Both the position numbers and the translations under genes were made by a program. A stretch of DNA of 64,000 nucleotides from NCBI GenBank assembly GCA_963726745.1, contig CAVSDR010000003.1, positions 576,001-640,000 on the forward strand. The letters are read 5' to 3'. Shown here one piece after another: positions 13,615-40,233 of this stretch (the stretch's first letter is position 1; each line of letters starts with the position of its first letter). Under the pieces are notes generated by a model. That model made no database searches. It was not told the DNA's origin and saw nothing but the letters and a program-made list of their open reading frames with translations. Origin of the DNA: an uncultured Verrucomicrobiae bacterium. Its GTDB lineage: Bacteria; Verrucomicrobiota; Verrucomicrobiia; Chthoniobacterales; UBA10450.

Positions 13615-14532
13615 CTACTGGCCCCCGGGAGGCGGTGTACTGCCGGCCGCGGGCGGCAAGGTGGCAGTCGGGTCAGCCGTCTTCGGCGCGCCCGGAGGCG
13701 GCACCGTCCCTTGGTTGGATTCCGGTCCGGGTTCACCCGGCGGACGCACCAGCGGCGGCGGCGCACTGGCCGTGCCCGCGAGCTCGGCGCGCTCCTTCAA
13801 CCAGGCCTGGTAATCCTCCGGAGTGTCGACCACAACCATGCCCTTCATGCTGTAATGGCCGAGGCCGCAAAGCTGACCGCAGACCACCTCGTAGTTCCCG
13901 GTCTTGATTGGGGTGAACCACATCGGGATGATCTGGCCGGGAATCGCGTCCTGCGCGATACGCATCGCCGGCAGGGCGAAATTATGGATCACATCCTTCG
14001 ACGACAGTTCGATGATCACCGGCCGGTTCACCGGCACGTGCAATTCTCCGAGCGCGACGAGATCGTCCTTCCCTTCCGGGCTCGCGGGATCGAGACCAAG
14101 CGGGTTCGAGGTGCTGACTAACGAGACATCGCGCCGGCCAAACTCGCCATCCGGCCCGGGAAGGTGGTAGTTCCAGTTAAACTGCTGGCCGACGACGTGG
14201 ACCAGGAGCGCATTGCTCGCATCCGGAAAATCGTTTACCCGCTTGGCCCAAAGCGGAATCGCAAAGCCAACCAGCAACACCGCCTCGATCAAAACGACGG
14301 CAAATTCCAAGTGCGTCGAGATGCCGCTTTTGACGCCTTCGTGATCGGCTTTCGGGTTCCGGCTCTTGTGAAAGCGGATCAGCACGTAGACGAAAAAAGC
14401 CGACCACCCAAGGAAGAGCGCGCCCATAAACCAGTGGCTGAACTCCAGGATATGGTCGATCTGGAAGCCGTGCGCCGAGGCGTTCGGCGGCTGGCCCAGA
14501 AATTCGTTAATCAGCGCGAGGCAATTAGTCAT
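13615..14532 (-). CDS. coxB: Cytochrome c oxidase subunit II
   Basis: Two TM helices, GQQFNW, DVIHNF, QDAIPG, CuA motif CGQLCGLGHYSM. Confidence 0.93.
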   Translation of the reverse strand: MTNCLALINEFLGQPPNASAHGFQIDHILEFSHWFMGALFLGWSAFFVYVLIRFHKSRNPKADHEGVKSGISTHLEFAVVLIEAVLLVGFAIPLWAKRVNDFPDASNALLVHVVGQQFNWNYHLPGPDGEFGRRDVSLVSTSNPLGLDPASPEGKDDLVALGELHVPVNRPVIIELSSKDVIHNFALPAMRIAQDAIPGQIIPMWFTPIKTGNYEVVCGQLCGLGHYSMKGMVVVDTPEDYQAWLKERAELAGTASAPPPLVRPPGEPGPESNQGTVPPPGAPKTADPTATLPPAAGSTPPPGGQ

Positions 14533-14785
14533 ACTGGTTCAAATCTTCCTGCACCAACTCCTGGTGCGGCTCGAGCGGCATGCGGGCGTGACGCCACAGG
14601 TGAAAACCAAAAACGCTGACGCCCCCGAGGACGGACATGACCGCGCCCATGAGGAACCAAATCGCTATTGCCATGCTCTGGGTCGATTTCGAATTCGGCG
14701 CGCCATAACAGACGGCACAGGCCATGGCTTGACCCATTTGGGTCCCGAGCAAAAGCGCGAGCGTAACCAGCAACTTCATTCTCAT
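14525..14785 (-). CDS. Small exported/membrane protein with CxxC, in the cox operon
   Basis: Signal peptide followed by ACAVCYG and a TM helix; overlaps both neighbours. Confidence 0.65.
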   Translation of the reverse strand: MRMKLLVTLALLLGTQMGQAMACAVCYGAPNSKSTQSMAIAIWFLMGAVMSVLGGVSVFGFHLWRHARMPLEPHQELVQEDLNQYD

Positions 14786-14991
14786 GTGAAGATCCTTAGG
14801 CGTTTCATTTTCCGATAAAACCAGATGCCGTAGACGAAGAGCCCCACGGCGGCAGCAAAGGAGACGGTCGCTCCCAAAGTGTAGGCGGAGGTGGCGAGGA
14901 CGACATTCAGCCAGATGCACCAGCTTCCAAGCGCCAGCGCGAGAAGCACGGAGAAGGTGATGAAAACGAAATGAAAACCTTTAAGCGACAT
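14782..14991 (-). CDS. Small membrane protein in the cox operon
   Basis: 69 aa, two TM helices, MSLKGFH..FI start, tight operon packing. Confidence 0.65.
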   Translation of the reverse strand: MSLKGFHFVFITFSVLLALALGSWCIWLNVVLATSAYTLGATVSFAAAVGLFVYGIWFYRKMKRLRIFT

Positions 14992-14993
14992 AG

Positions 14994-15335
14994 CTAGCGA
15001 CTGACCGGGTCATACCAGGCAAAGTAAGTAAGCCAAAACAAGGCGAGCACGAAGAAACCAGTGAAGATAAGCACGCGGTAGATGAGTTTTTTCTCCGCCG
15101 CGAGGTGCATGAAGATGGCGGCTACGAGGCAAGCCTTGAAGGTCGCCACAAGCATGCCGATGGCCATGTTTGCCTTGTGCGAGCCGAAGTCGACATAGGA
15201 GAGGAAGACCGTCAGCGCAGTGAAGACGATGAGGACCGCGCCGACCATGAGGTATTTTTTGACGTGGTGCGAAACGTCATGCGCATAAGCCTCATGCTCG
15301 CTCGGATCGGGAGTGACGTCGGGCGGGTTGTTCAT
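14994..15335 (-). CDS. Cytochrome c oxidase subunit IV family protein
   Basis: Three TM helices and the ATFKA-LVAAIFMHL motif. Confidence 0.88.
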   Translation of the reverse strand: MNNPPDVTPDPSEHEAYAHDVSHHVKKYLMVGAVLIVFTALTVFLSYVDFGSHKANMAIGMLVATFKACLVAAIFMHLAAEKKLIYRVLIFTGFFVLALFWLTYFAWYDPVSR

Positions 15336-15337
15336 AT

Positions 15338-16213
15338 TTAGAGGAGGTAAAACAGCGGGAAGACGAAGATCCAAACCAGGTCGACAAAGTGCCAGAACAA
15401 GCCGGCCACCTCAACTCGGTTGGCCAAATGTTCCGGGTTCCGCTTGTAGAGATTTGCGCCCCACGGCAACCAGAGATAGGCGAACACGATCACGCCTCCG
15501 AGCACGTGCAGGCCGTGCAGGCCGGTGATGGTGAAGTAAGTTGAAAAGAACGTGCTGTGGCGCGGGATAAACATCTCCGCGTGGTCCACATCGGCCTTCT
15601 CGATCACCGCAATTTTATCGGATTTCGGCAGTGGCCAGAAATGCGGGCGATCGCTTAACGGGTCGGTCGGAGCAGCGTTCACCTGGTCGAGTTGGATCTC
15701 GTATTCGTGCACGTTTGGATCGTGCAAGGCCTCGTGATTATGCAGGTGTCCCGTGATCTCGACGCGCGGCTCCAGACCTTTGGCGGCGAGGTGCTGGTTG
15801 CCGAGGTATTCCTCGTATTTTTGCAGCCGGTCCTGGCGGATATAGGCACCAAAATGCTGGAATTTATCCGGCCACTCGTAGGCCAGCTTGACCACGAGGA
15901 AGATGATTCCGCAGAGGATCGTGATCCCCATGTAGAACTTGTATTTACCGAACTGCCGCATCTTTAAGGCAGCCCAAGCGAGGACTACGGTCACGGAAGA
16001 AGCGATCAGCACCGCGGTGTTCATGGTGCCCACGGGGACGTTCAGGAGACCATGCGGCCAGTAGCCCGGAAGCGCATCGAGCCGCAGGAATACGTAAGCG
16101 GAAAAGAGTCCGCCGAAGAGCATCACTTCAGAAGCGAGAAAGAGCCAGATGCCGATCTTCGCGTTCCAAAGCCCGGTGTCCGGACGTGCAGCAGTCGTGT
16201 AAGGAATTTCCAT
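15338..16213 (-). CDS. coxC: Cytochrome c oxidase subunit III
   Basis: [34 protein letters not shown]. Confidence 0.93.
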
Positions 16214-16231
16214 GGCGCGTGCTTTTTTCGA

Positions 16232-18118
16232 CTAATGCGTCACCGCAGCCGCTTCCGCGTAGGCGCGGCGATCTCCTTCGGTGACCGGCTCGCTTTGCAT
16301 GGTGAAATCATCCGGTCGGCCGGGCAGGCTGTATTCGTAAGGGCCGCGATAGGCCGTCGGCACCACGTCGAAATTTCCGTGCGGCGGCGGCGAGGGCGCG
16401 TCCCACTCGAGGGTCGTCGCCTTCCAGGGATTGATGTCCACCTTCTCGCCCTTCCAGATGCTCCAGAAGAAATTGATGATAAACGGGACCTGCGCCAGAG
16501 CCATCGTCCAGGCCGCAATCGAGATCGGGATGTTCCAGTGGAAACCGGAGAGACCCCAGACCTTCTCGTTCGCCAGGGCCCAGCCTTGTCCGCCGTCGTA
16601 CCAACGGCGGTGCATGCTCAGCATGCCCTGGAGGAACATCGGCAGAAAGATCACGTTCATGCAGATGAGCGACGGCCAGAAATGCACCTTCCCCCAGAAC
16701 TCGTTCATTCGTCGCCCGGTCGCTTTCGGGAACCAGAAGTAGATCCCAGCGAAGAGCGCGAAAATCGTTCCCGGCGCGACGATGTAATGGAAATGCGCGA
16801 TCACGTAATAGGTGTCGTGCAGGTAAAGATCCGACGAATTGAACGCCAGCGGAATGCCGGTCAGACCGCCAATGCCGAACATCGGCAGGAACGCAGTCGC
16901 GAAGAGCATCGGGGTGTTGAAGCGAATCGATCCGCCCCAGAGCGAGATGAAAAAAGCGCTCAGAATAATAACCGACGGGATGGAAATGATCAGCGTGGTC
17001 GTTTGGAAGAACGCACTCACGACTGCGCCCATGCCGGTGAGCCACATGTGGTGCGCCCAGACGATGAAGGAAAGAAAGCCGAGGACGAGCGCGGCGAAGA
17101 CCAGGCTCTTGTAACCCCAGAGCGGCTTGCGGGTGTTGTTCGCAATGATCTCGGCGACGATGCCCATGCCCGGGAGGATGAGCACGTAGACTTCAGGATG
17201 CCCGAGGAACCAGAACAAGTGCTGCCAAAGAATCGGGCTGCCGCCACCGGCAATTGCCAGCGGTGCGCCGTTCACGACCAAGCCCGTCGGCATGAAAAAG
17301 CTCGTCGCCGCCACGCGATCCATCAGCTGCATGACCACCGCCGCCTCCAGCGGCGGGAAAGCAAGCAGGAGCAGGAACGCGGTGATGAACTGCGCCCAGA
17401 CGAAGAACGGCAAGCGCATCCACGTGAGCCCGCGCGCGCGCAGCTGGATAATCGTGGTGATGAAATTCACCGCGCCCAGGAGCGAGGAAGTAATCAGCAA
17501 GATGAAGCCGATCAGCCACAGATTTTGCCCGTTCCAAAACCAATGATATTCCGGACCCTTATCCGCGATCACCGAGAGCGGCGTATAGGAAGTCCAACCG
17601 CCCTTGGCCGCGCCGCCGGGGACAAAGAAGCTCGCGAGCATGACCACCCCGCCGAGGAAAAACGACCAGTAGCTGGCCATGTTGATCTTCGGGAAGGTCA
17701 TGTCCGGCGCGCCGATCTGCAGCGGCACCACGTAATTTCCGAAGGCCGCGAAGGCCACCGGCACGATCCCGAGGAAGATCATGATCGTGCCATGCATCGC
17801 CCCTAACGAGTTATAAAAGTCCGGCGTCATCATCCCGCCGGGCATGCTTTTGGCCCCAAAAACGTTGCCCAGGATATCGCCCAAAATCGGAATCGCTTTG
17901 CCTGGGAAAGCGAGCTGCCAGCGCATCATCATCATCAGGGTGAACCCGAAGAAGAGGAAGATCAGGCCGGTGATGAGATACTGGATCCCGATGATCTTGT
18001 GATCGGTCGAGAAGACCCATTTCCGCCAGAAGCCGAGCTCGTGATGATCGTGTCCGTGGTCGTGCTGCGGGTCGTGGCCCGCATGGGCGTGGGAAGCGAG
18101 ATCAGTGTGGGCGTCCAT
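16232..18118 (-). CDS. coxA: Cytochrome c oxidase subunit I (A1-type heme-copper oxidase)
   Basis: STDHK, MHG, WFLGHPEVY (A1 Glu), WAHHM, HDTYYVIAHFHY: all ligands present. Confidence 0.96.
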   Translation of the reverse strand: MDAHTDLASHAHAGHDPQHDHGHDHHELGFWRKWVFSTDHKIIGIQYLITGLIFLFFGFTLMMMMRWQLAFPGKAIPILGDILGNVFGAKSMPGGMMTPDFYNSLGAMHGTIMIFLGIVPVAFAAFGNYVVPLQIGAPDMTFPKINMASYWSFFLGGVVMLASFFVPGGAAKGGWTSYTPLSVIADKGPEYHWFWNGQNLWLIGFILLITSSLLGAVNFITTIIQLRARGLTWMRLPFFVWAQFITAFLLLLAFPPLEAAVVMQLMDRVAATSFFMPTGLVVNGAPLAIAGGGSPILWQHLFWFLGHPEVYVLILPGMGIVAEIIANNTRKPLWGYKSLVFAALVLGFLSFIVWAHHMWLTGMGAVVSAFFQTTTLIISIPSVIILSAFFISLWGGSIRFNTPMLFATAFLPMFGIGGLTGIPLAFNSSDLYLHDTYYVIAHFHYIVAPGTIFALFAGIYFWFPKATGRRMNEFWGKVHFWPSLICMNVIFLPMFLQGMLSMHRRWYDGGQGWALANEKVWGLSGFHWNIPISIAAWTMALAQVPFIINFFWSIWKGEKVDINPWKATTLEWDAPSPPPHGNFDVVPTAYRGPYEYSLPGRPDDFTMQSEPVTEGDRRAYAEAAAVTH

Positions 18119-26075: not shown

Positions 26076-26834
26076 CTAAGACTTGGGCGGGGCCGCGGCG
26101 CCGGCAGCCGGAGCCGGCTCAGCCGCGGCGCCACCAGGCAGCATCGCGTCCGCGGGAATCGCGTTCAGCGTGTCCGCATGCAAGGTGGCGTCCTGGCCGG
26201 CCATCTCCTTGCGCAACGCGCCGATGCTTTCCTTCGCGACCGCATCCGCCTTGTTGCTCCAGGCGCTGCGGATGTAGGTGAGCACGTCGGCTATTTTCTG
26301 GTCGTTGAGCGTTTTCTCCCACGCCTGCATGACCGCCGAGCCGTAGGGCTGGCCTTTGACCACGATCGGACCTTCAAGGCCCTTAAGCAGAATCATGCCC
26401 AAGCGACGCGTCCCCCCGGTCACGTATTCCGAACCGTCGAGCGGCGGATATTGTCCGGCAATGCCGAGGCCATTCGCCTGGTGGCAGGTGGCGCAGTTGG
26501 CCATGAAAACTTTCTTGCCGCGATCTGCAGGCGACAACTCCGCTGCCGCGCCGCCGCCCGCGCCTCCGCCGGCCGCGATCTTGGCCTGCGGAGCGTTGCC
26601 GAAATCCAAACTGCTGCCGCTAAACCCGCCGGAGAACCGGCCGAGGTAGGCGCCGCCAAAAAAGACCGCGAGCCCATAAATGCCGATGAGCCAGATGGAG
26701 AGCGGTTCGAGGCCGACGCGCGGCTCGGTCTTCTCCCGTTGGATCGCGGCGTGCACCTGCTGCACGTCTTCGGTTTCGCCGTAGTCCATTCCCTGGCGGC
26801 GAAGTTCTTCGGGTGATGGAGTGCGCTCGTTCAT
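26076..26834 (-). CDS. Membrane-anchored monoheme cytochrome c
   Basis: TM helix, CATCH, YPPLDGS, axial Met in VMQAW, TYIRSAWSN. Confidence 0.9.
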   Translation of the reverse strand: MNERTPSPEELRRQGMDYGETEDVQQVHAAIQREKTEPRVGLEPLSIWLIGIYGLAVFFGGAYLGRFSGGFSGSSLDFGNAPQAKIAAGGGAGGGAAAELSPADRGKKVFMANCATCHQANGLGIAGQYPPLDGSEYVTGGTRRLGMILLKGLEGPIVVKGQPYGSAVMQAWEKTLNDQKIADVLTYIRSAWSNKADAVAKESIGALRKEMAGQDATLHADTLNAIPADAMLPGGAAAEPAPAAGAAAPPKS

Positions 26835-27701
26835 TTGGCAGCGGCGGGTGCGGCGGCGGCGGCAGGAGCAGCCGGGCCGGCTTTTACTTCCGCGAGCGGA
26901 TGAGTCTGATCAAGGGACATGAGGTAGGCGACAAGGCACTGCGCGTCGTATGTGGGTACGATCTCAAATTCCTCGGGCGCGTTGCCACTCGTTAGGCCAA
27001 GGGCGTTATGATCGCGCTGCCCGCTGATGCGGCGCTTCTCGTAGAGGAAGCGATACGACGGCATGTTCGAATCCTCCACCAGGCTGCGCGGGTTGTAGAG
27101 ATGGCGATGGTGCCAGGCCGCGGAGTAAGCCGCGGGCGTGCCGTCCTTGGCGATGACCGGGGCAGGCTCAGGCGCCGCAGGAGCCACCGCAGGGGAGGCC
27201 ACGGGAACCGCAGGAGCGGCAGCAACCGCGGGGGCCGTCGCCGCACCAGGTGCCGGTGCCGGCGCACCCGGAGCCGGAGCGGCGGGAGCAGCACCCGGAG
27301 CGGAGCGGAGCCGGAGCGGCAGCGGCCTCGGCTTCCAAGGGCGCGCGCTTGCCGACGTTCGAAAGATCGGGACCCATGCGGGCTTTCCCGAGTAAGACCG
27401 GCTGATCGAAAATGTAATCCCGCGGAGCGCTCCGACGTTCGCCCCACTTCCGCTCGATGTCGGAGGCGATGTAATCCGGACGAACTTGCTGGCTATGGCA
27501 GTAGAAGCAGCCATTTGCCACGTAGACCTGGCGGCCGCGCTCGGCCATGCCGGACTTCGGCATCGGGTAAATGTCGGTGCCCTCCTCGTCCATCTGCGGA
27601 TTGAGGTTCCCGATCTGCGCGTTCGGAATAAGGATCAGGCCAGTCCACGAAAAGAGGAACGTGCCGAAGATGCCGAAGAAGAGTGGTGCGAAACCTTTCA
27701 T
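26831..27701 (-). CDS. CcoO/FixO-like cytochrome c subunit; frameshift near 27295-27320, probably a sequencing error
   Basis: GRQVYVANGCFYCHSQQVRP and RMGPDLSNVG in one frame; WHHRHLYNPR..SNMPSY..LVAYLMSL in the next frame after an Ala/Pro linker. Confidence 0.82.
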
Positions 27702-29200
27702 ACGGTGACCGTCGCCGCCTCCTCTTCCACGGGGTTCAAAAATGTGGGCACACTCGAAGTGCGGCCGAGACCGAAGAGCATCATGCCGTAGTGGAAGGCA
27801 AAAACGCAGTGACCCACCGTAAGCAGGATGGCCGCGAGGCTGCGGCCGCGAAGATACGGCAGGATGGTCTGGATACTTTCGGTAAAGGCAAGCGCCGGGT
27901 CTTGCATGTTCAAGCCTTGCACGAAGCCGCCCACAAGGAGCAGCAGCACCGTTAGCATGATGCCGTAGGCGCAGGCCCAGAAGTGGAGCTTGATCAACGA
28001 AGCGTAACGCCATTCACGCCCGACCAGCCGCGGCACGATGTAATACATCGAGCCAAACATCGTCATGGTGAAGAAAGCGTAGAGGCCGAGCTGCGTGTAA
28101 CCGTCGCTCGCTTCCGAGAAATTCACGATCGCCGCCATCGAACGCAGCGAAATGATCACGCCGACCAGGCTGAAAACGGTGTAGGAAATGGCGCCAAAAA
28201 CCGTGAAGCGCAGCGTGGGGCTGTAGCGCATGAGCGGGAAATATCCGCGCATGGTCATGTGGTGATTCAAGCCCACGGTCGCCACCGGGATGATCGTCAA
28301 AATCGTGGCCGCAATGCTGGCCGTGATCATCCACGCGGGGAACGGTCCGTCGATCAACCGCTGCATACCGGTCCAGCTGGCAAAGAGCGCATAAGTCCAG
28401 AAGCCAATGGCTGCGAGATGGTAGCTGTAAACCGGACGGCCAATGACCTTCGGGATCATGTAATAAGCCGTGCCCAGCCCGATCGAGCCGAGGAAGAGGA
28501 ACAAGAAGTTGTTGGCAAACCACCAGTTCACCGCCGCCTGCATCACGCCCTGCACCGGGGCGACGAAGAGCATGATCTCAGTCGCGCCGTAGAACCACGG
28601 AAACCAAAGGAACGCGCCCAGCAGATACCATTGCGTGATGTAAATGTTTACTCCGCGCCGGAAGCGGAACATGAGCACCGCCCACGAGACAACCAAGGTG
28701 TAAGCCACGAAAAGAATCAGCCCGGCATAAGGCGGAAACTCGAGCCACTGATAGCCGGTGCTGTGGCCGGCCAAAATGCTGCCTATTCCGATGAGCACCC
28801 CGACGTTCCAGAAAGCCGCCCCCGCCACCAGCAAGAGCGGATGCCGCAAAGTCGTGCGGCAAAGGCGCGCCATCAGCCAGATGGCCGTACCCATGCCGAC
28901 CATCGCCGCCCAGCCATACAGCATGACGTCGACCTGCGCGGGCCGCAGACGGCCCCAGCTAAGGAAGCTGATTCCGCCGAGCAAATTCGGCATGTGCAGG
29001 CCGAAAGAAGTGAGCAGGGAAAGCAAGGTGCCCAGGAGCAACCAAACCATCGCCGAAGAGTAAAACATCAGCACCGGCACGCGCGTGGAAGCGTCGATGA
29101 GCGCACGTTCCACCTGCTCGACATCGCCACGCGTCACTTGCGCGTCCGGCGTCGGAACGGTGCTGCCTGGAGCTTTCAACGGGATCTCAGCGGGAGTCAT
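27698..29200 (-). CDS. CcoN-like (cbb3 subunit I homologue) lacking heme/CuB His ligands
   Basis: GRLRP, IYITQWY, WWFANN, YYMIPK..RPVYSYHL, PTLRF, YYIVPR and LHFW align to CcoN, but the ligand histidines are replaced. Confidence 0.85.
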   Translation of the reverse strand: MTPAEIPLKAPGSTVPTPDAQVTRGDVEQVERALIDASTRVPVLMFYSSAMVWLLLGTLLSLLTSFGLHMPNLLGGISFLSWGRLRPAQVDVMLYGWAAMVGMGTAIWLMARLCRTTLRHPLLLVAGAAFWNVGVLIGIGSILAGHSTGYQWLEFPPYAGLILFVAYTLVVSWAVLMFRFRRGVNIYITQWYLLGAFLWFPWFYGATEIMLFVAPVQGVMQAAVNWWFANNFLFLFLGSIGLGTAYYMIPKVIGRPVYSYHLAAIGFWTYALFASWTGMQRLIDGPFPAWMITASIAATILTIIPVATVGLNHHMTMRGYFPLMRYSPTLRFTVFGAISYTVFSLVGVIISLRSMAAIVNFSEASDGYTQLGLYAFFTMTMFGSMYYIVPRLVGREWRYASLIKLHFWACAYGIMLTVLLLLVGGFVQGLNMQDPALAFTESIQTILPYLRGRSLAAILLTVGHCVFAFHYGMMLFGLGRTSSVPTFLNPVEEEAATVTV

Positions 29201-29217: not shown

Positions 29218-29907
29218 CTAGGGTCGCGGGGTGGCTCCTCGCACCGGGATCGGAGTTCCAGCGGGGACCTGCACTGGCGTCGGCCCAGGCGTGCTTTCAT
29301 TGAAGCGGAAAAGTTCGGTGCGCGAATCCGGCCCGGCGGCGGGGGTGGAAGACGGTCCCGGCTGAGTGCCGGCAGGCGCTCCCGGAGGCTGAGCCTCGGC
29401 GTTCGATTGGCCTTCCATCTCAGAGTCTTTCCCGGCTTTCGCGGTGTGCGGGGTAGCGCTCGGGGATGCGGAAGCGGCCGGAGCCGGCGCGGGCACTGCG
29501 GGAGCCGCAGCCTGCGGGCCCGGCTGCGGCGCGGCGGCGTCAGAAGTGGACGGAGCGGCCGCGGCGGGAGCGGGCGCGGCAATCGGGCCGGCCGGCGCGG
29601 GCTTGCGCTGCGCGAGATCGGCCACCGTCAATTCCATCGCGCGATGAATCGGGATTCGTGCCGTGCCCTTGGCCTGGTCGACCCAGGCATAGTCGTGCAG
29701 CTGCGGATTCACTTCCTGATGGAGTTTATCGAGTTTCTCCTGCCGGGCCTGGGCGCGCTTTTCTTCGTAGTTGGTCGTGCGCGGCATCGCGCCGATGACC
29801 ACCCAGACGAACAATCCGAAAACCAGAAAGAGCAGGACGACGCCCAGCCAGGTTCCGAAGGTGGAACGCGGTTGCTCAAAGCGCAGTGATGTCTCGGGTT
29901 GGGCCAC
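29218..29907 (-). CDS. ActG-like single-TM subunit with a Pro/Ala-rich tail
   Basis: TM helix, then YAWVDQAKGTARIPIHRAMEL as seen in ACIII-associated ActG-type proteins; directly after actF. Confidence 0.6.
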   Translation of the reverse strand: MAQPETSLRFEQPRSTFGTWLGVVLLFLVFGLFVWVVIGAMPRTTNYEEKRAQARQEKLDKLHQEVNPQLHDYAWVDQAKGTARIPIHRAMELTVADLAQRKPAPAGPIAAPAPAAAAPSTSDAAAPQPGPQAAAPAVPAPAPAASASPSATPHTAKAGKDSEMEGQSNAEAQPPGAPAGTQPGPSSTPAAGPDSRTELFRFNESTPGPTPVQVPAGTPIPVRGATPRP

Positions 29908-29909
29908 GG

Positions 29910-31112
29910 TTAGTTCTGGATGCGCAGGGATTCGATGAGGCGCGGATCACGCAGCGGGAAGAGCGAACTCTTGGTGATCAAGCGCAGGAAAACGAAGACG
30001 AGCGTGCCGCCGATGCCAAGCAGCGGGGTGAAATCCCACAGGCTTACATGCACCCCAGTGCGATGCAGCTCCGGCAGAATAACGACATACATGTCGACCA
30101 TCTGCATGAAGACGATCCAGCAGGCGACAAGGACGAGCTTATCCGGCTTTTTCTTGGTCGCGCGCAGCAAGAGGATGGCAAACGGCAGGAAGAAGCGCCC
30201 GATAACCAACGAGAGGCTGAGCAGATTCCACGACTCGGTATTGCGCAGGATGAAGTAGTCAGTCTCCTCCGGGATGTTCGCATACCAGATAAGCATGTAC
30301 TGGCTGAACCCGATGTAGGCCCAGAAGACACTGAAGGCCAGCATCCACTTACCCATGATGTGGTAATGCTCGATCGTGATCGTCTCGCGCAAATAGCCAG
30401 CCTTATGGAGCAGCCGGGTCACGATCACCAAAAGCGACATCGAGCTGCCCGCGGCACCGGCAAAGATATAGACGCCCCACATGGTGGAGAACCATTTGTA
30501 GTTCAGGCTCGCGAGCCAGTCGTAGGCGCCGAAGGTGAGCGAAATCCCGAAAAGCGGCAGGCAAACAAACGCCATCTTCCGCATCGTGAGCGTCTTCGCC
30601 GGGCTGCCGTCCTTGTCCTGGGCAATGGAGATTTTCCGGTAGAGAAAGGCGGCTAACGAGAAGTAGGTGAAAAAGAACACCGCGCGAATGAGCCAGAACG
30701 GGAGGTTCAGGTAAGCGCGCTTGGCGTCGAGCAAGTGATCGCCGCCGCGCGGGATCACCATCCACTCGTAGAGATGGGTCCGCAGGAGGACGACCGGGAT
30801 GAAGAAGATCGCCATCACCGGCAGGAGGAGGGCGATGTTCTCAAGTTGCCGCCTAACGACCACGGACCACTCGGCATCGACCGCGTGGTGCACCAGGATC
30901 CAGAAATAGCAACCGGCGCAAAGGGTGAAGAAAAAGGCAAACCCAAAGAGCCAGGAGTAAGCCATCTGCGCCGGGTTTATCAGCATCCCGACAACGCTGA
31001 GTGCCAGCCCGAGGAGCGCGCACAGACCAGCAATCATCGACACGCCGCCGAAGCGGTTGCGATCAAAGTATTCGCCTTCCGGCGTGGGCATGACGTGGGC
31101 TCTCTCGCTCAT
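29910..31112 (-). CDS. actF: Alternative complex III subunit ActF
   Basis: Polytopic; WSVVVRRQLE, YLN-PFW-IR, WFSTMWG, YIGFSQYMLIWYANIPEE, DPRLIES. Confidence 0.88.
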   Translation of the reverse strand: MSERAHVMPTPEGEYFDRNRFGGVSMIAGLCALLGLALSVVGMLINPAQMAYSWLFGFAFFFTLCAGCYFWILVHHAVDAEWSVVVRRQLENIALLLPVMAIFFIPVVLLRTHLYEWMVIPRGGDHLLDAKRAYLNLPFWLIRAVFFFTYFSLAAFLYRKISIAQDKDGSPAKTLTMRKMAFVCLPLFGISLTFGAYDWLASLNYKWFSTMWGVYIFAGAAGSSMSLLVIVTRLLHKAGYLRETITIEHYHIMGKWMLAFSVFWAYIGFSQYMLIWYANIPEETDYFILRNTESWNLLSLSLVIGRFFLPFAILLLRATKKKPDKLVLVACWIVFMQMVDMYVVILPELHRTGVHVSLWDFTPLLGIGGTLVFVFLRLITKSSLFPLRDPRLIESLRIQN

Positions 31113-31825
31113 TTCTTCTCCAATAAGGCTTGAGCGTCCGGCGGCACATCCGCGGCGGTGGCGTTCTGGCTGCGTTGCAAGGCGCGCAGGTAGGCGATGA
31201 TCGCCCAGCGGTCCGGCACGGTCACGTTCGGCCCGTAGGCAAACATGGTGTTCTTGCCGTGCGTGATGGTGTTGAAGATCTCGCCGTCGGCCATTTTGCG
31301 GATGCGCTCATCTTGCAGGCTAACGACCGTGGCCAGGCCGTATTGCTTGGTGATGCCGTTGCCGGCCGCGCTCGCACCGTGGCAGATCGCGCAGTTGATG
31401 TTGAATCGCTGCTCACCGCGCAGCATCAACTCCGGCGTGACTGGAACCGGAATTCCCGTGCCCCATTGGTCGCCCATCTTGCCGGTGTTCACGTAATCCG
31501 AACCGACGCTGAAAGCGACCGCGCTCCCGCGCTCGGACGATCCGGGAATCGGCGTGCCCGCAGGCAAAGCCGGAGCGCCGGGACTCACGGTCGCGCCCGT
31601 CTTCGGCATGTCGTAGCCGATCGGGACCGTCCCATCGATCGGTGGGCGCATTGCGCGTTCATCGGCGTAGAAATTCGACGACGCTTGCGCGCGCAGCTTT
31701 GGCTGGCGAACCATGTCCGGGAAAATTTCCGTGGGCTCGGCGCGGTGATGTTGTCCGCGGAAACCAAGGATCGCGACCATCGCGACGCCGGTGAGGGCAA
31801 AGATGAGGAAGAAAGCGCGCAACAT
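31109..31825 (-). CDS. actE: Alternative complex III subunit ActE (monoheme cytochrome c)
   Basis: DMVRQPK, MRPPIDGTVP, CAICH, DGEIF-TITHG, DRWAIIAYLRALQRSQ. Confidence 0.88.
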   Translation of the reverse strand: MLRAFFLIFALTGVAMVAILGFRGQHHRAEPTEIFPDMVRQPKLRAQASSNFYADERAMRPPIDGTVPIGYDMPKTGATVSPGAPALPAGTPIPGSSERGSAVAFSVGSDYVNTGKMGDQWGTGIPVPVTPELMLRGEQRFNINCAICHGASAAGNGITKQYGLATVVSLQDERIRKMADGEIFNTITHGKNTMFAYGPNVTVPDRWAIIAYLRALQRSQNATAADVPPDAQALLEKK

Positions 31826-31828
31826 ACT

Positions 31829-32383
31829 TTAGTCCTCGTGCACCACGGTGAGGCGTTGCCCGCCGGTTGCTTCGAGCAATTGCACCACTTCCGCTTCCGT
31901 GAAACGCGGGTCGCGCGCTTCGATCGCAAGGAAGAAGCCATCGTCGGTCACGCGGCGAAAACGATCCCAGTTAAACATCGGATGATACCAGCGCGGCAGG
32001 CCGTTCATCACCAGGACGGAGAAGAAAGCAGTGAAGGCCGAGAAGAGCACCGTGAGCTCAAACATGATCGGGAAAAACGCCGGGACCGTGCGCCAGTCGA
32101 ACGGCTTTCCGTGCACGATCAACGGGTAGATAAAGGTCGAAGGCCCAAAGGTGAGCACGCAAGCCGTGAGCAGACCGGTGATGCCGCCGACGAGGACGTT
32201 GGCGCTCAGCCAGGATTTACCGATGCCCATGGCGTCGTCCATTCCGTGAATCGGGAATGGCGAGTAGACGTCCCAGCGCTTAAAACCGGCATCGCGCACG
32301 CGTTCCGCCGCATGGTAAAGCGCGGCCGGCGTCGGGTATTCCGCCGCGATTCCGTAAACCTTGTTTCCGGATGGCGTCCTCAT
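31829..32383 (-). CDS. actD: Alternative complex III subunit ActD (DUF3341)
   Basis: DVYSPFPIHGMD, GKP, PIMFELTVLF, DDGFFL. Confidence 0.9.
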   Translation of the reverse strand: MRTPSGNKVYGIAAEYPTPAALYHAAERVRDAGFKRWDVYSPFPIHGMDDAMGIGKSWLSANVLVGGITGLLTACVLTFGPSTFIYPLIVHGKPFDWRTVPAFFPIMFELTVLFSAFTAFFSVLVMNGLPRWYHPMFNWDRFRRVTDDGFFLAIEARDPRFTEAEVVQLLEATGGQRLTVVHED

Positions 32384-33843
32384 CAATTGCGCTCCATTCC
32401 GCCGGCCTGGACCGGGTGATGCCCCTCGGGCGTGTGATGATGCGGATCCGCTTCAGGCAGGACGATCTTCACCTCCGACATCGCGATCATCGGGAGATAG
32501 CGAATAAAGAGGAGGAAGAGCGACATGAAGATGCCGAAGGTGCCGATGAAGGTCCAGATGTCGACCCAGGTGGGATAGAACATCCCCCAGCTCGACGGCA
32601 GGAAGTCGCGATGGAGACCGCCCACGATGATGATGAAGCGCTCGAACCACATGCCGGCGTTCACGCACATGCAGACGAAGTAGACCACGTAGATGTTGAA
32701 GCGGAAGCGCTTGAACCAAAAGAGCTGCGGCGCCAGGAAATTGCAGAAGAGCATGCCGACCCACCAGTACCACCAGTAAGGACCGAGGATGCGGTTATAG
32801 AAGGCGTATTTCTCGTATTGGTTGCCGCTATACCAGGCGACGAAGAACTCCATCGCGTAGGCGTAGGAAACGATCGAGCCGGTGAGCAGGATGATCTTGG
32901 CCATCTTGTCCACGTGCTGCGGCGTAATCACGTCATGCAGCTTGTAGATCGCGCGCGCGGGGACCAAAAGAGTCAGCACCATGGCGAACCCACCGAAGAT
33001 GGCGCCGGCGACAAAGTAGGGCGGGAAGATGGTGGTGTGCCAGGTCGGGATAACCGACGTAGCGAAGTCAAAAGAGACGACACTATGCACCGACAGAACC
33101 AGTGGCGTCGAAAGGCCGGCTAACAAGAGGTAAGCCATCTCGTAATGCCGCCAGTTGCGGTTGGAGCCGCGCCAGCCGAGCGCGAAGATGCCGTAGAGTA
33201 GCTTCTTGATCTTGGAGCTCGCGCGATCGCGCAACGTGCCCAGATCAGGAATGAGCCCGGTATACCAAAAGAGCACCGAAACCGAGAAGTAGGTCGAGAC
33301 CGCAAAGACGTCCCAGAGCAGCGGCGAGCGGAAGTTTGGCCAGATGCCGTAGTTGTTCGGCAACGGTGCGAGGAACCAGGCCATCCAAACGCGGCCAACG
33401 TGCACCCCCGGGAAAATCGCGGCGCAAATCACCGCAAAAAGCGTCATCGCTTCCGCGGCGCGGTTGATCGAGGTGCGCCATTTTTGCCGGAGCAGGAAAA
33501 GAATCGCCGAGATCAGGGTGCCGGCGTGACCGATGCCGATCCAGAAAACGAAGTTGGTAATGTCCCAAGCCCAGCCGACCGGATGATTCAGGCCCCACGT
33601 ACCGACGCCCGTAGAGATCTGGTAGGCTAAACAAAAGAGACCGATGCCCGCGACCATCGCGGAAACCGCAAAAGCGACCCACCACCAGCGCGGCGCTGGC
33701 TCCTCGATCACGCCGGAAATGCGATTCGTGATCCAGGTGAAGTTGCGCTTGTTCAGCACCAACGGCACCCGCGCGAGCGGACGCTCCACCGAAGAGGAGG
33801 CCTCGCCCTCGATCACATCAGGGACTGTGCTCGCGCCGTTCAA
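32383..33843 (-). CDS. actC: Alternative complex III subunit ActC (NrfD family)
   Basis: [56 protein letters not shown]. Confidence 0.95.
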
Positions 33844-36800
33844 TGTCTCTCCTCCGGATTCCTGCTACCTTCCGCCGGCTGTGCCTGCGCACCGTGCGCT
33901 GCTCCTTCTCCGTGCGTCACCTCACTCGCGACCCCAATGCGATGAGCATCCGGCATTTTCATGTTCGGGTTCCGCAGCCGTGCGAGGTAACTCGTGCGCG
34001 GTATGACATTCAAATACGAGAGCAGACGGTAATTTCGATCCTGCGACTTCATCTTCGAAACCCGGCTTTCCGGATCGGCAATGTCGCCAAAGACAATCGC
34101 CTCCGTCGGGCAAGCCTGGGCGCAGGCGCTGGTAAAGGAATCGCGCGGAATGAGCGTCTTGTCGGAAGCGCCCGCGTGCACGTGCGCCGCGATTTTCGCT
34201 TCCTCGATCCGCTGCACGCAATAGGTGCACTTCTCCATCACGCCGCGCATGCGCACGGTCACGTTCGGGTTTTTCTGCAGCTTGGAAATATCCGGCGCGC
34301 CCTTCTTGGTCAACGGCCCGAGGTATTCCTCGTAGACGTTGAACAAGCCGGCGACCTTCTTCTTGCCTACAGGACGCTGGTTGTAGTCGAAGAAATTGAA
34401 GCGCCGCACCTTGAACGGGCAGTTGTTCGCGCAATAGCGGGTGCCGATGCAGCGGTTGTAGGCCATCACGTTCAGGCCGTCTTCGCTGTGCACCGTCGCG
34501 TTCACCGGGCAGACGGTTTCGCACGGCGCATTCTCGCAGTGCTGGCACATCATCGGTTCGTGCACCATCTCCGGATCTTCCGGAATCTCGCCGCGATCCT
34601 GGTTGAACTTCTTCGCGTCGGCAAAATAACGGTCGATGCGAATCCAGTGCATCGCGCGGCCGTGGCTCACCTGGAGCTTGCCCACGATCGGGATGTTATT
34701 TTCCGCCTGGCAGGCAATCACGCACGCGCTGCAACCGGTGCAGACATTCAGGTCCACGCTCATCCCCCACTGCTGCGGCGCAGTCAGCTTCGGATGGCTA
34801 TAAAGTGTCGGCAATTTCGGCGGCAACTCTTCGTCGCCCGCGATTTTTTCGACAAACTCATTGTCCGCGCGATAGCCCTCGAGCGTCGCTTCGCGGACGA
34901 GCCCACGGCCTTCGATGCTCCAATGCTCCTGCGTAATCGCAAAGGCATAGCTCCCGGGAACCTTCTTCACCTGCACCTTCGAGATCGTCTTGCCGTCGAC
35001 CGTGATGAAGTGCGGGTTGCTGCTCGTGCGCAGGAGGTAGCCATTGAATCCGGAGCTGTCGCCCGCTGGCGGATGCAGCATCCCCTTTTCACCGGAGTAC
35101 GGGAGCGGGCCTTCGTTGTTCAAGCTCCGCCCGTAGCCGAGCGGAATCGTGATCGAGTTGTCTGCGTGCCCGGGCGAAATCAGCGCCGCGATGACGAGCT
35201 GGCGTTGCACCGGCTTGCCTGCGCTGGTGCCGGCCTCGGTGACCGTGACTTCGATCAAGTCGCCGGTGTTCACGCCAAGGTGCCTTGCGTAGGCCGGGCT
35301 AATCAAGGCCGCGTTATCCCATGTGAGCTTCGTCACCGGGTCGGGCATTTCCTGCAGCCAGCCATTATGAATGTAGCGGCCGTCGTCGACCGAGTAATCG
35401 CGCACGAGCACGATCTCCGGTGAATCGGCCGTCGGTGCCGGCGCGGAAGACCAAAGCGTGTGCGCCACGCCGCCGGCGGCGTTGCCGTTAAAAGTCGGCG
35501 CCTTGTCCGTCGGCTGCACATGCGCGGCGAAACCGTCGCGCAAAAGTTTCGACCAGGCCGCGGCCGCGTCACCCGGAGGGTTGCTCGCGCGGAAGGTTTC
35601 CTGGACGAGCTCCGGCCCTTCCACGAACGGGCGGCCCAGCAGCAGATTCAGCAGCTGAATTTCCGACAGCCCGTCGAAAAGCGGCAGAATCATCGGCTGC
35701 ACCGCGAGGTAGCTGCCCTCGGCCGTGAGCGCGTCGCCCCACGACTCGAGATAATGCGCGCCCGGCACGTGCCACTTCGCGAGTTGCGAAGTGCTGTCTT
35801 CAAAATAACCGACACGCACCACTTCAGGAACGCGCTTCTGCAGGTCGGCCCAATCGAGCAGTTCCTTCGTTTCCTTATCTTCCGCGAGACCGCGGGGCGC
35901 GTTGTAGACCGGGTCGCCGCCAATAATAAACAGCTGCTTGATCCGGCCCGCGTTGATGTCCGCGGCCAGCTGCAGAATACTGCTCGTGCGCGGATTCCGC
36001 GGAAAATTCCGCACCAACACCGTGGTCCCGATGTTCCGGAGCGCAGCGTTGATCGCATACGCCATCAACTGCACCACCACCGGCTGGTGCGAACCGGCGA
36101 GGACGATGCCCGCGCCGGCTTTCGACATCAGGTCGTTGGCGCATTCGTTCAGCCAGGCTTCATCAAACGGGGTCGCACCGGCCGGCGCCGTGAGCGTCGC
36201 CATGACCGAGCCGAGCCCGGTATCCTTGGTCGTGCCGGCGATCTTCATCGCGAGCGCGTGAGTGAACGCCGGGATCTGGCTGGCGGGCAAACGCAACCGG
36301 TGATCGGCCATCGCGCCCGTGAGCGTGAAACGATTTTCCACCACGTAGAGGCGGTTCATCGAATCCTTCGCCGTGGTCACCCGGCGACGATTCGCAAACG
36401 CCCGCGAGGAAGCGACATCGCCTTCGCCGCAATCCAGGAAGTCGCTGTCTAAAGCCAGGATCACATCCGCGCGTTCGAAGCGCGGGACCAGGCGCGTGTT
36501 GTCGCCAAAACTGATTTGCGTGCCGAAGTTTTGCGCTTCGCTCAAGGCCGGCTCGTATTGGGCCCAGCGCATTTTCGGGAACAGCTTCTCGAGCTCGCCG
36601 CGGAGGCGTTCGCGCGTCGGCGATAGCGTCTCCTCCGTGAGCACCGCAAACCCAGCGCCGCCATCCGCACTCATCTGCGTGCGCAGTTCCGCGAGATATT
36701 TCTCGAAGGCCGCGCGGTCGCGCACCTTCGTCACCGTGCGCGTCTTCGCGGGCACCCCGTGCTCGCCCTTATACTTCGGGCCTTCGTGCTCCTGCACCTT

Positions 36801-37274
36801 CTCGGTGTAACGATTCGCGCGCGCCGGATCGTAAAGATCGAGAATGGAAGCCTGCGCGAAGCTATCGGTCGCGCCGCCGCTCGCCGGATGGAGCGGGTTG
36901 CCCTCGATCTTGATCGGGCGGCCGTCGACGGTTTGCACCACCAGCGGCAAGGCGCCGGTGCGGCGCGGCATCGCAGTCGCGTAATAGAGCGGCTTACCCG
37001 GGATGGTCCACTCGACGCTCTTCGAGAACGGAAGCAAATGCGCCGCCGGACGGCGGCAGCTCGTGAGCCCAAAACCAGCCAGCGCCATGGAAGCGCCCAT
37101 GAGCTTGAGAAAACCGCGACGCGACCACTCGTCTCCTTCGAGTTGCGCGGCGCCCGCAGGGAATTCGCGGTCGAGCCAGTCGCGGAACTCCGGCGTGTCG
37201 CTCAGTTCGCCCACGCTCCGCCAGTAACGGCGGCCCGTTTGCGCTTCCGGGGGATGTTCGAGGATGCGTTTCAT
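33840..37274 (-). CDS. actB: Alternative complex III subunit ActB (molybdopterin oxidoreductase-like plus Fe-S domain)
   Basis: YWRS, TAT motif [62 protein letters not shown]. Confidence 0.93.
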
Positions 37275-37996
37275 CGATGACAACCCTGGCAGCCGAGCGG
37301 CGGGTTAATGTTCCACTTTTCTTTCAAGGTTTGGCCGATCTCCCGCTGGGTAAGTTTGTCCTTCTTCGCGAAATCTTCCTCCGCGCCTTTTGGCTGGCCG
37401 TATTTCGCGACGAACTCCGCGGGCTTCACGTCTTCCGGCTTCCAATCGAGATTGAAGATCTGATCCTCCGGGCGCAGGAAATTCTCCGGCGCGCGGTGGC
37501 ACTCGAGACACCAGGCCATGCTGTGGGGCTTCGCGTGGTAGACCTCGGCCATGTGGTTGATTGGGCCGTGGCAGCTGGCGCAACTGATCCCGCGATTCAC
37601 ATGCGCCGCATGATTGTAATAGACGTAGTCCGGCGTGCGATGGATCTGCACCCACTTGATCGGTTCGCCGCTCTTCCAGCTCGCGCGCACTGGCTCGAGC
37701 TTTGGGTTTTCCTTCTGCACCTGCGTGTGGCAGGCCATGCAGGTCTGGGTGTTTGGGAGATTCGAGTGCGCCGCCACGTCGACGAAGCTATGGCAATACC
37801 GGCAATCCATCCCGAGCTGGGTCACGTGGAGATCGTGCGGGAACGGGACCGGCTGGATCGGTTCGTAGCCCACGCGGGTATATTTCGGCGTGACATAATA
37901 CCAGGTGGCCGCGGTGAGGCCGGTCACGACCGTGGCGCCACAGACGAGAATCTTTAGCGGGAGCCAGTTCGACCAACGTGGAAAAAAGTTCGCCAT
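37271..37996 (-). CDS. actA: Alternative complex III subunit ActA (pentaheme cytochrome c)
   Basis: Five CxxCH (CRYCH, CMACH, CASCH, CLECH, CQGCH), QPVPF-H, N-terminal TM helix. Confidence 0.93.
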   Translation of the reverse strand: MANFFPRWSNWLPLKILVCGATVVTGLTAATWYYVTPKYTRVGYEPIQPVPFPHDLHVTQLGMDCRYCHSFVDVAAHSNLPNTQTCMACHTQVQKENPKLEPVRASWKSGEPIKWVQIHRTPDYVYYNHAAHVNRGISCASCHGPINHMAEVYHAKPHSMAWCLECHRAPENFLRPEDQIFNLDWKPEDVKPAEFVAKYGQPKGAEEDFAKKDKLTQREIGQTLKEKWNINPPLGCQGCHR

Positions 37997-38300: not shown

Positions 38301-39902
38301 CTACTTTGGCAGGCCCAGGCGCGCGCGTTGCGCGACCACTTCGCTCGCCAGCAGCGGGAGATTCCCCGAGCGCGCGACCAGCGTTTGCCCCACGTCGGAG
38401 AGGAGCAGGTTGATCCATTCCCGCTCGTAGGCGCTCGCCTGGTCGAGCGAGCGCGCGGCCACGTAGCAATAGAACATCCGCTGCAGCGGATATTGCCCGG
38501 AGTAGATCGTCTCCGCGGTCGGCACCGTCGCCGGCTCACCCGAGTTCGCCGCTACCGGCACGCTCCGCACCGGATGAATCCGTGTGCGCAAGGAAGCGAA
38601 GCCTAACGAATCGGGATCCTCGGCGACCGCTTTCTCGACGCCGTGCGAGAAGACCACGTCGCTGTGCTTCATCTCTTCGCGGAACGGTCCGTCCTTGAGC
38701 ACGAGCTGCTGGAAAACGCGCGTCGTCCCGTAGCTCGGGTAGCCGCCCACGAGCTTGATCTCGCCGCCGCGTCCGCCTACTTCGCTCCACTGGCGAATCG
38801 CCGCCGGCGCACCGGCGCGCCGCTCCATCCCGAAGATGGCGTCGAGCTGCGGGATGGTGAGGAACGGCACCGGATTTGCCGCCGGGACGAGAATCTCGAG
38901 CGCGTCGCGCGCGATGCTCACCTCCAGGAGGGAATGCCCGCGCTGGCGGAAGAATTCCTCCTTCTGCGCCGAGCTCATCGCCAGGCTCATCAAGCCGAGC
39001 TGCGCCTGGCCCTTGATCAATTCCTCCGCTGCTCCCGGGCTGCTGGTAAAGCTCGGTTTGAGCTCGGCCCCGGCCACGCGCAGCGCGATCAGGCGCACGG
39101 CGTTGCGCGTGATGTAGCTCACGGTGTTCGCGGTCGCGATCGCCGGCGGCACCAGCCGGCCACTCGTTAGGGGACGATAGACCGGATAACCCGGCTGCCG
39201 GAGCACGGCCGCGCCGGTTTGGTTTACCTGGGCCAAGGGCGGGAGCGAGTGCACCTGGCCCACGTGGGCATTTGCATCGCCGGCCACCTCCCGCCCGCCG
39301 CCTTGCGCAAAGGACCAGTGCCCCGGACTGAGCAAAACGCCCAGCCGTTCAGCCAGCGCTTTCTCGGTTTGCACTTCCGCAGTCACCGCGCTCAGCACCG
39401 GATACAACCCGCCGCCTAAAAGCCGCAGATCCCCGCTCAAACGCCGCACCACGATGATGGTCGCGTCCGGGTAACGGCTCAGCGGAACCACGAAAGTATC
39501 GGTGCCGACTGCGCGGGCGTTGTGCGCCGTCTCGCCGAAGAGGTCTAGCGCGAGCGCGCGGCCGGTGGCATCGAGCAGTTGCACCGCGATGTCGGTGTCT
39601 TTTTGCCAATCAGTCCGCAGCACGAGCGCGAGATCGCCTTCGATTTGCGCGCGCTCGAGCTCGAAACGCAGGGCGCCTTCGCCGAAGGGCTGGCTCGCGG
39701 CCACATGCCACCAGCCATTTTGGATTTCTCCGCCGCTCCGGTGGAGCGCGCGCAGGTAAGCCGGGTCGCCTGCGGTGGTGGTCTTGATTCCCTCCGCGCC
39801 CTCGGCCGAGAACTCAAACTCGACCGTCGCCGGGACCGGCATTTCCGCCGGCGCGAGCAAGGCGCCGAAGACAACCAGCAAGATGGCAAGCCGGAGTTTC
39901 AC
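38301..39902 (-). CDS. Exported protein with a C-terminal PstS-like substrate-binding domain
   Basis: Signal peptide from GTG at 39902; IARDAL..LVPAANP, LT-PQLDAIF, YGT..FQQLVL, YPLQR, LLSDVGQ. Confidence 0.75.
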   Translation of the reverse strand: MKLRLAILLVVFGALLAPAEMPVPATVEFEFSAEGAEGIKTTTAGDPAYLRALHRSGGEIQNGWWHVAASQPFGEGALRFELERAQIEGDLALVLRTDWQKDTDIAVQLLDATGRALALDLFGETAHNARAVGTDTFVVPLSRYPDATIIVVRRLSGDLRLLGGGLYPVLSAVTAEVQTEKALAERLGVLLSPGHWSFAQGGGREVAGDANAHVGQVHSLPPLAQVNQTGAAVLRQPGYPVYRPLTSGRLVPPAIATANTVSYITRNAVRLIALRVAGAELKPSFTSSPGAAEELIKGQAQLGLMSLAMSSAQKEEFFRQRGHSLLEVSIARDALEILVPAANPVPFLTIPQLDAIFGMERRAGAPAAIRQWSEVGGRGGEIKLVGGYPSYGTTRVFQQLVLKDGPFREEMKHSDVVFSHGVEKAVAEDPDSLGFASLRTRIHPVRSVPVAANSGEPATVPTAETIYSGQYPLQRMFYCYVAARSLDQASAYEREWINLLLSDVGQTLVARSGNLPLLASEVVAQRARLGLPK

Positions 39903-40044
39903 CTTGGAGCGCAGCCTAACGAGAGACGCCGGTGCGCGACAACCGCAAACTCTGGCCGGCCGCGGGATTATTTCCTCGAAAAAGAAAACACGCAATCCGC
40001 GTGCCTCGCGCGATTTCGTGGTGAAACAATAAAGGAGCGACGCG

Positions 40045-40233
40045 ATGGCAGAGAAAGAACACCAGCGGGAACTGATCGATACCGGCACGGACAAGCGTTA
40101 CGTCCGGCGCGACGACGAAGGGAAGTTCAAGGAAAGCGACGACCAAGGACGCTCCCTGAGCCAGGATGTGCGGCAACACGCCAAGACCGAGGTCAAGCCC
40201 GGCCAGGGCGACCGCGGCGATCAGAAGCGCTAG
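40045..40233 (+). CDS. Small hydrophilic hypothetical protein
   Basis: AAGGAG RBS upstream; 62 aa with DKRYVRRD..GKF and KPGQGDRGD. Confidence 0.7.
   Translation: MAEKEHQRELIDTGTDKRYVRRDDEGKFKESDDQGRSLSQDVRQHAKTEVKPGQGDRGDQKR

Follow-up and report, generated by a model that had tools for sequence, protein, structure and literature searches.

The CcoN-like protein P0001 of an uncultured Verrucomicrobiae bacterium (UBA10450, Chthoniobacterales) is, judging from its sequence, almost certainly not a reductase of O2 or NO. It would act as a non-catalytic CcoN-fold scaffold for CcoO- and CcoP-like cytochromes c that relay electrons from alternative complex III (ACIII) to another acceptor, a reading to which we assign a probability of about 0.6. 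The gene lies in the window, a stretch of 64,000 nucleotides corresponding to positions 576,001–640,000 of the forward strand of contig CAVSDR010000003.1 (assembly GCA_963726745.1). The host is a soil-type verrucomicrobium, and its genome, designated G000, is 94.7% complete. The gene and its two cytochrome partners, referred to here as N, O and P, stand in an operon with the order actABCDEF-G-N-O-P, which occurs throughout the class.

The best solved relative of P0001 is CcoN from Pseudomonas stutzeri (3mk7_A; E 4e-36 by phmmer), and the protein belongs to the Pfam COX1 family, PF00115. In the alignment to 3mk7_A, RLRPLH is replaced by RLRPAQ (His to Q89), WWYGHN by WWFANN (His to N230), YIWAGPHH by ASWTGMQR (Tyr to A274 and the His pair to Q280 and R281), and IGHVH by DGYTQ (His to Y368 and Q370). 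None of the six His ligands is kept, and the cross-link Tyr is gone as well. The three CuB positions are thus occupied by N230, Q280 and R281, the position of the proximal His of the high-spin heme b3 by Y368, and the positions of the two low-spin heme b ligands by Q89 and Q370. The helix VII position of the cross-linked Tyr is A274 in P0001, and Tyr is found there in 0/120 homologues. A NorB-type set, consisting of the heme His and three His of a non-heme iron, is replaced at all six positions. A sequence-only reading of the window had reported the same four motif replacements and the absent Tyr in a full-length frame of 500 residues, all of which the alignment bears out; its view that P0001 is not a cbb3 oxidase is strongly supported, every cofactor feature being absent. 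Polar positions on helices VI–VII are also changed (T238>G and S263>A), at sites that we presume to have a proton-channel role.

The nearby NHH segment (N312-H313-H314) was considered as a source of substitute ligands, a way out that the sequence-only reading had left itself, and is ruled out because intact orthologues carry NHH too. It is located at the end of helix 303–317 in the predicted model, which we take, from CcoN topology, to be the cytoplasmic end. With TIGR00780, P0001 scores 153.7 bits against a cut-off of 583, and an intact orthologue scores 229, also under it, so the cut-off does not separate the two forms. A check for a second, canonical ccoN elsewhere in the genome, which the earlier reading had proposed, found none with tblastn, PF00115 or TIGR00780 in the 94.7% that is covered.

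Close homologues were taken as the best 120 of 1683 matches and are 74–83% identical to P0001. Those with organism names come from Chthoniobacterales, Verrucomicrobiota or soil metagenomes, and all named ones are annotated as 'cbb3-type subunit I', the automated miscall that had been foreseen. The binuclear centre is gone in all 120: N230 is present in 120/120, Q280 in 116, R281 in 118, Y368 in 120 and Tyr274 in none; about 228 of the 500 positions show the same invariance across these homologues. The two low-spin His are both kept in 106 of the 120, both are lost in 11 and one is lost in 3. Among the own-lineage GTDB loci (best 80 of 269), 78 were covered at these positions, with both His kept in 69, both lost in 7 and one lost in 2, and the pair was lost four to five times inside the lineage. 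Members without the pair also relax G57, N91, R453 and G457, which would be heme-pocket positions. In these comparisons, what the family has in common is the loss of its O2-reducing centre, and the loss of all six His in the window copy is a second step and a minority state, because most close relatives keep both low-spin His. The earlier term 'cofactor-less' fits the window copy but not most of its lineage, and the concern that close relatives might keep their ligands applies to the low-spin pair but not to the binuclear centre.

An AlphaFold2 model of P0001 was generated from a 92-row alignment, with a predicted local distance difference test score of 90.2 and a predicted template modelling (TM) score of 0.90. 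Comparison with 3mk7_A gave TM values of 0.86/0.92 and a root mean square deviation of 2.8. P0001 is predicted to adopt a 12-helix heme-copper oxidase fold that is closest to CcoN; NorB is also among the fold matches.

The ratio of nonsynonymous to synonymous substitution (dN/dS) was computed by NG86 for pairs with dS 0.05–1.5, which are not independent and have dS near saturation; its median for own-lineage N is 0.10 (1910/3321 pairs), beside 0.08 for ActC, 0.16 for ActF, 0.12 for the N-terminal part of CcoO and 0.11 for the CcoP-like protein. P0001 is still constrained against its nearest locus (dN 0.11, dS 1.2). In family f12, N has a dN/dS of 0.14 (3/6 pairs), and family f8, in which no pair falls under the dS limit, stands outside the comparison. 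No internal stop was found in the 31 ligand-less matches except one flagged in G219. These values show that, at the level of coding sequence, ligand-less N is kept under purifying selection in this lineage, contrary to the neutral evolution that would have counted against the earlier reading.

The partners retain their heme c motifs. N and ccoO overlap by ATGA at 27698–27701, and ccoO and the following cytochrome c gene at 26831–26834, which confirms both the coupling and the monoheme cytochrome c described previously. The CFYCH motif of the CcoO-like partner is intact, as described, but the gene is frameshifted as assembled at about 27297–27316, within a GCTCCG repeat of the Ala/Pro linker, so that the C-terminal half, which includes the distal Met motif (SNMPSY), is read in another frame. 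This is likely an assembly error, because ccoO is one open reading frame (ORF) in 68/76 own-lineage loci having both halves and because the same assembly has further frameshifts, in cox1 and cox2 on contig C5. The CxxCH motif of CcoO is present in 82/82 own-lineage and 26/26 other ligand-less loci, its distal MP motif in 75/76 and 23/27, and the CxxCH of the CcoP-like protein in 72/72 and 26/26, respectively. Of 62 large loci surrounding the best match, 61 have the ACIII genes upstream of N, which follows actF-G, and the remaining one is cut by a contig end; O and P follow N. Co-location with actABCDEF is conserved. The proposal of a scaffold acting as an ACIII accessory module is the best that we infer. 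A promoter and terminator scan of the sequence gave nothing usable.

Among 301 genomes of the phylum that were scanned, 92 matched, 72 of these in the same class. Of these 72, 41 keep the six His and the Tyr and 31 do not. The intact orthologues are 42–53% identical to P0001 and have the same operon order. Outgroup CcoN/CcoNO proteins hold all ligands, and the direction of change is therefore loss. The N tree built without the ligand columns has 4 state changes (79 rows) and the ActC tree has 11 (73 rows), and an approximately unbiased (AU) test rejects a single ligand-less clade (p 0.016; 62 rows, 31 vs 31). The truncated locus L181 and 22 near-redundant loci were dropped from the N tree, and own-lineage loci were thinned (22 of 80 in the N tree, 4 in the AU test). 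These comparisons show ligand-less N as the descendant of an intact, ACIII-linked C-family oxidase, with repeated losses whose exact number is unsure because of long branches.

A 50%-cluster library gave a similar picture of diversity. From the best 150 of 4107 profile matches, 11 partial proteins were excluded and 139 covered all sites; 4 of these have six His, 1 has four, and 134 have three or fewer (71 none), in counts where clustering over-counts fast-evolving forms and genes are read without context. Every ligand-less cluster has its own unique replacement pattern, which argues for no common new active site. The suggestion of a channel or sensor is left unsupported, no replacement residues being common to lineages. 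Across this set, 75 scaffold positions are at least 70% conserved. A docking face for CcoO would be expected to shift them towards the periplasm, but no such bias is present: 24/128 periplasmic, 20/123 cytoplasmic and 31/205 mid-membrane positions are conserved when membrane sides are assigned by hand. Protein P0159 represents an intermediate state, in which the His of both hemes and that of helix VI remain but the HH pair and the Tyr are missing. Two more intact CcoN subtypes occur outside ACIII operons (L171–L173 and L176–L180); one of them reads YYMHQ in helix VI and has a CcoO-like partner with two hemes.

CcoS serves cofactor maturation. Two intact genomes have a FixS/CcoS gene immediately upstream of N, and none was found in three ligand-less genomes. 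With a hidden Markov model grown from those two intact genomes, ccoS is detected in the interval from actF to N at 32/32 intact loci, but at 0/71 loci of the own lineage and at 0/27 other loci without ligands; L144 and L174 are missing from this count. No ccoS/fixS (PF03597) was found in the 94.7% complete G000. Two more FixS-negative genomes of the order have a ligand-less N, as predicted, and in a fresh draw FixS occurred in 1/24 other genomes of the genus, many of them incomplete. That one, G319, carries the ligand-less ACIII copy and, apart from it, a free-standing ccoS-N-O cluster (L243:1534–6316) that is intact, belongs to the ACIII-linked subfamily and also holds a short CcoP-like ORF and a 742-residue ORF that is presumably CcoI-like. 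G334 and G325 have an intact N and no FixS match, but their contigs end upstream of N. The distribution shows that ccoS was lost in step with the ligands. A ccoS mutant has no activity, according to passages of PMC8267372.

An A-type-scoring PF00115 match is present in all 31 ligand-less genomes. The 8 genomes without such an oxidase are all among the 41 intact ones, and in 4 of the 8 the intact N is the only PF00115 match, which suggests that the intact form is likely a working oxidase. Subunit II adjoining the operon has no heme c in the window and in 20/20 own-lineage loci; in other families, 20/20 A-type oxidases checked are caa3 (15 from ligand-less and 5 from intact genomes). Tight constraint on N where the oxidase has no heme c would fit a stronger need for it there, with few lineages behind the comparison. 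A second ACIII cluster of G000 (G000:C5:100–11821) is followed by a caa3-type oxidase and has no N-O-P; its cox2, with a heme c domain, and its cox1 are the genes frameshifted as assembled.

In the scaffold reading, N would anchor and stabilise the CcoO- and CcoP-like cytochromes c in the membrane. N would still bind O and P, and O and P would need N by analogy with other cbb3 oxidases, where, according to passages of PMC8267372, absence of CcoN usually loses both c-type cytochromes. Electrons would pass from quinol through ActC/B/A and ActE to P/O and on to CuA, with O and P providing the additional heme c that joins ACIII to an A-type oxidase; in the window genome the acceptor is likely the aa3 oxidase. 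Delivery to aa3, as proposed from the sequence alone, fits the own lineage but not the ligand-less genomes with caa3 elsewhere.

Several observations weigh against this reading. Interaction and electron transfer are both steps that we infer, and CcoO is still present in Campylobacter jejuni biogenesis mutants (passages of PMC8267372). All 15 ligand-less genomes checked outside the lineage already have an A-type oxidase with fused heme c, and the need for a relay is therefore not general. In genome G039, at L213:10193–13097, cox3 comes straight after ACIII and the small membrane ORF; the locus has no N, O, P or cox1, and the cox2 of this genome has no heme c. It is the sole ACIII locus without N found in the survey. 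That N, O and P are gone jointly speaks for the scaffold reading, but ACIII together with such a cox2 and no N, O or P at the locus means that the module is dispensable. The ligand-less N of family f9 is relaxed (dN/dS 0.45, 106/136 pairs, vs 0.16 in intact f9), and the ccoO of the window is broken as assembled, its frameshift site not being bridged by contigs of three read runs. A-type status is a Pfam score, with motifs checked in few genomes only, and 5 of the 8 genomes without an A-type oxidase belong to a single genus, so that they are kin and not independent. Finally, the low-spin pair and the invariant N/Q/R/Y set in most of the lineage go beyond any obvious need of a bare scaffold.

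In an alternative that we consider unlikely, N in this lineage is still redox-active through a single low-spin heme b and works as an electron buffer, as a sensor or as a transmembrane branch of the O/P chain, and the window copy is a minority form that has lost this function too. Both His are kept by the majorities given above, they are lost jointly (11 both, 3 single; in most pairings 3/3 independent pairs, a number too small to reach significance), and the relaxation of G57, N91, R453 and G457 would agree with an emptied heme pocket. The gene was nevertheless retained through each loss of the pair within the lineage, the window copy is still constrained, and most other lineages do not have the pair. 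A distinctly unlikely alternative gives N a structural or assembly role as a subunit of an ACIII supercomplex, where it would be a membrane spacer or docking platform and the O/P relay would be incidental. Its fixed place after actF-G and the spread of conserved residues over both membrane faces and the helix core would suit such a role, whereas the near-universal retention of the O and P heme ligands in ligand-less loci, and the presence of ACIII without the module in G039 and in the second cluster of G000, would not.

That N230, Q280, R281 and Y368 form a new site in the lineage, such as a heme ligated by Tyr that carries out new chemistry, or a path for ions, is very unlikely. The four residues are near-invariant in the best 120 homologues and place a Tyr at the former proximal-His position, but so many other positions are equally invariant that invariance is not special; moreover, none of the four is common to other lineages, ccoS is absent, and the exchanges on helices VI–VII affect the presumed proton channel. 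Least credible is slow decay, with a redundant oxidase subunit heading for loss and held by operon coupling only. The relaxed family f9, the long branches, the full loss at the G039 locus and the ccoO frameshift would point that way; they are countered by a dN/dS of about 0.10 at dS above 1, by matches free of internal stops save the one flagged, by a ligand-less copy kept beside an intact one in G319, and by the frameshifts on C5, which point to sequencing error.

P0001 resembles P. stutzeri CcoN (3MK7 chain A) in sequence, predicted fold and CcoO- and CcoP-like partners, and differs from it in having no His ligands, cross-link Tyr or ccoS, in its monoheme CcoP-like partner and in its place in an ACIII operon. 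Nitric oxide reductases and NO dismutase share the fold with altered metal ligands and keep the heme His and most metal ligands, whereas P0001 keeps no ligand. Its direct orthologue is the intact ACIII-linked C-type oxidase of Verrucomicrobiae, which keeps the six His, the Tyr and, in 32/32 testable loci, ccoS. Such an oxidase is noted for Opitutaceae and methanotrophs in passages of PMC8498564, citing Refojo 2010. Those passages group the methanotroph copy with Opitutaceae, and the three named methanotroph proteins that were checked keep 1/6 His: those of M. kamchatkense Kam1 (P0122), M. infernorum (P0124) and Methylacidimicrobium tartarophylax (P0125). An extra heme c links ACIII to A-type oxidases in Flavobacterium johnsoniae (ActA mobile domain) and Rhodothermus marinus (caa3), as given in parts of PMC8552683; in the window, ActA has five hemes and cox2 none. 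The present proposal would likewise place a tethered cytochrome c between ACIII and CuA, but with two separate cytochromes on a dead oxidase subunit.

The methanotroph genes have been interpreted as oxidases. Passages of PMC6688271 connect high O2 affinity in Kam1 with its cbb3 genes next to ACIII, and no match to 'cbb3' was found in the text of the supplements of that paper. A cbb3 oxidase is listed for nearly all verrucomicrobial methanotrophs in passages of PMC8498564, and for Limisphaera in passages of PMC13608581 that contain no ligand check. In passages of bioRxiv 10.1101/2024.01.15.574570, the ACIII-adjacent methanotroph genes are treated as a high-affinity cbb3 oxidase; in strain IT6 their transcripts were unchanged between O2-replete and anoxic conditions, and ba3 was up 6–30-fold. 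No other CcoN was found with this query in four genomes of the family holding the closest matches to the methanotroph proteins, and an inventory of three f12 genomes classes their remaining COX1-family genes, from score and motif, as A-type, B-type or NorB-like. No account of the ligand loss was found in the literature searchable as full text; subscription papers out of reach could mention it. The repeatedly evolved CcoN pseudo-oxidase variant in the verrucomicrobial ACIII operon is a real and conserved feature that is apparently undescribed.

Features of the window, with the basis of each assignment.
Feature	Position	Strand	Basis
CcoN-like pseudo-oxidase subunit P0001, 500 aa (N)	27698..29200	(-)	ORF; alignment; PF00115; predicted model
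Q89 codon	28936-28934	(-)	ligand-site position of P0001
N230 codon	28513-28511	(-)	ligand-site position of P0001
A274 codon	28381-28379	(-)	ligand-site position of P0001
Q280 codon	28363-28361	(-)	ligand-site position of P0001
R281 codon	28360-28358	(-)	ligand-site position of P0001
Y368 codon	28099-28097	(-)	ligand-site position of P0001
Q370 codon	28093-28091	(-)	ligand-site position of P0001
CcoO-like membrane-anchored monoheme cytochrome c, CFYCH, distal SNMPSY (O)	26831..27701	(-)	PF02433 on both halves; frameshifted as assembled
CcoP-like monoheme cytochrome c: N-terminal membrane helix, Gly/Ala linker, CATCH, Met motif (P)	26076..26834	(-)	PF00034, PF13442; TIGR00782 under cut-off
Small membrane protein between actF and N	29218..29907	(-)	conserved there; no ccoS between small ORF and N
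ActF	29910..31112	(-)	similar to ActC; operon position
ActE monoheme cytochrome c	31109..31825	(-)	domain search
ActD	31829..32386	(-)	PF11821
ActC	32383..33843	(-)	PF03916
ActB	33840..37283	(-)	Fe-S domains
ActA, five CxxCH motifs	37271..37996	(-)	domain search; motif count
A-type oxidase genes cox1, cox3, cox4, cox2 (candidate electron acceptor)	13615..18118	(-)	domain search, motifs
cox1 with active-site His motifs	16232-18118	(-)	motif reading
cox2 with CuA, no heme c	13615-14532	(-)	motif reading

The small ORF between actF and N, which by its position we take to be ActG-like, has no meaningful match in PDB, Pfam or NCBIfam. The segment 18190–26044, between N-O-P and the aa3 genes, encodes a pyridine nucleotide-disulphide oxidoreductase and, on the plus strand, a cluster of circularly permuted ATP-grasp, alpha-E and transglutaminase genes. 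It looks like an insertion of about 8 kb, because cox1 follows closely behind within the locus in relatives such as L001, L005, L008 and L012. Upstream of actA, the window encodes a protein with a C-terminal phosphate-binding-protein-like domain (38301–40094). The window also holds a radical-SAM-type ORF with CxxxCxxC (40752–41963), presumably lysine 2,3-aminomutase-like.

We give slightly better than even odds to a broader scenario, in which an ACIII-coupled cbb3 oxidase was converted many times independently across Verrucomicrobiae into a pseudo-oxidase arm of ACIII that carries cytochromes c and nothing more, each time with loss of ccoS. The abundant Chthoniobacterales of soil and the acidophilic methanotrophs would then mostly be without the high-affinity cbb3 oxidase that is ascribed to them, and would depend on other enzymes for growth at low O2. 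If true, the heme-copper oxidase superfamily would include a widespread pseudoenzyme. The co-occurrence of intact and dead orthologues, with ccoS as a clean genomic marker, would provide a natural experiment on the non-catalytic role of CcoN, and the cultured methanotrophs make testing practical. Physiology drawn from annotation would be corrected for the 'cbb3' of Kam1, M. infernorum and M. tartarophylax, and this CcoN-like family would inflate the number of 'high-affinity oxidase' genes counted in soil metagenomes.

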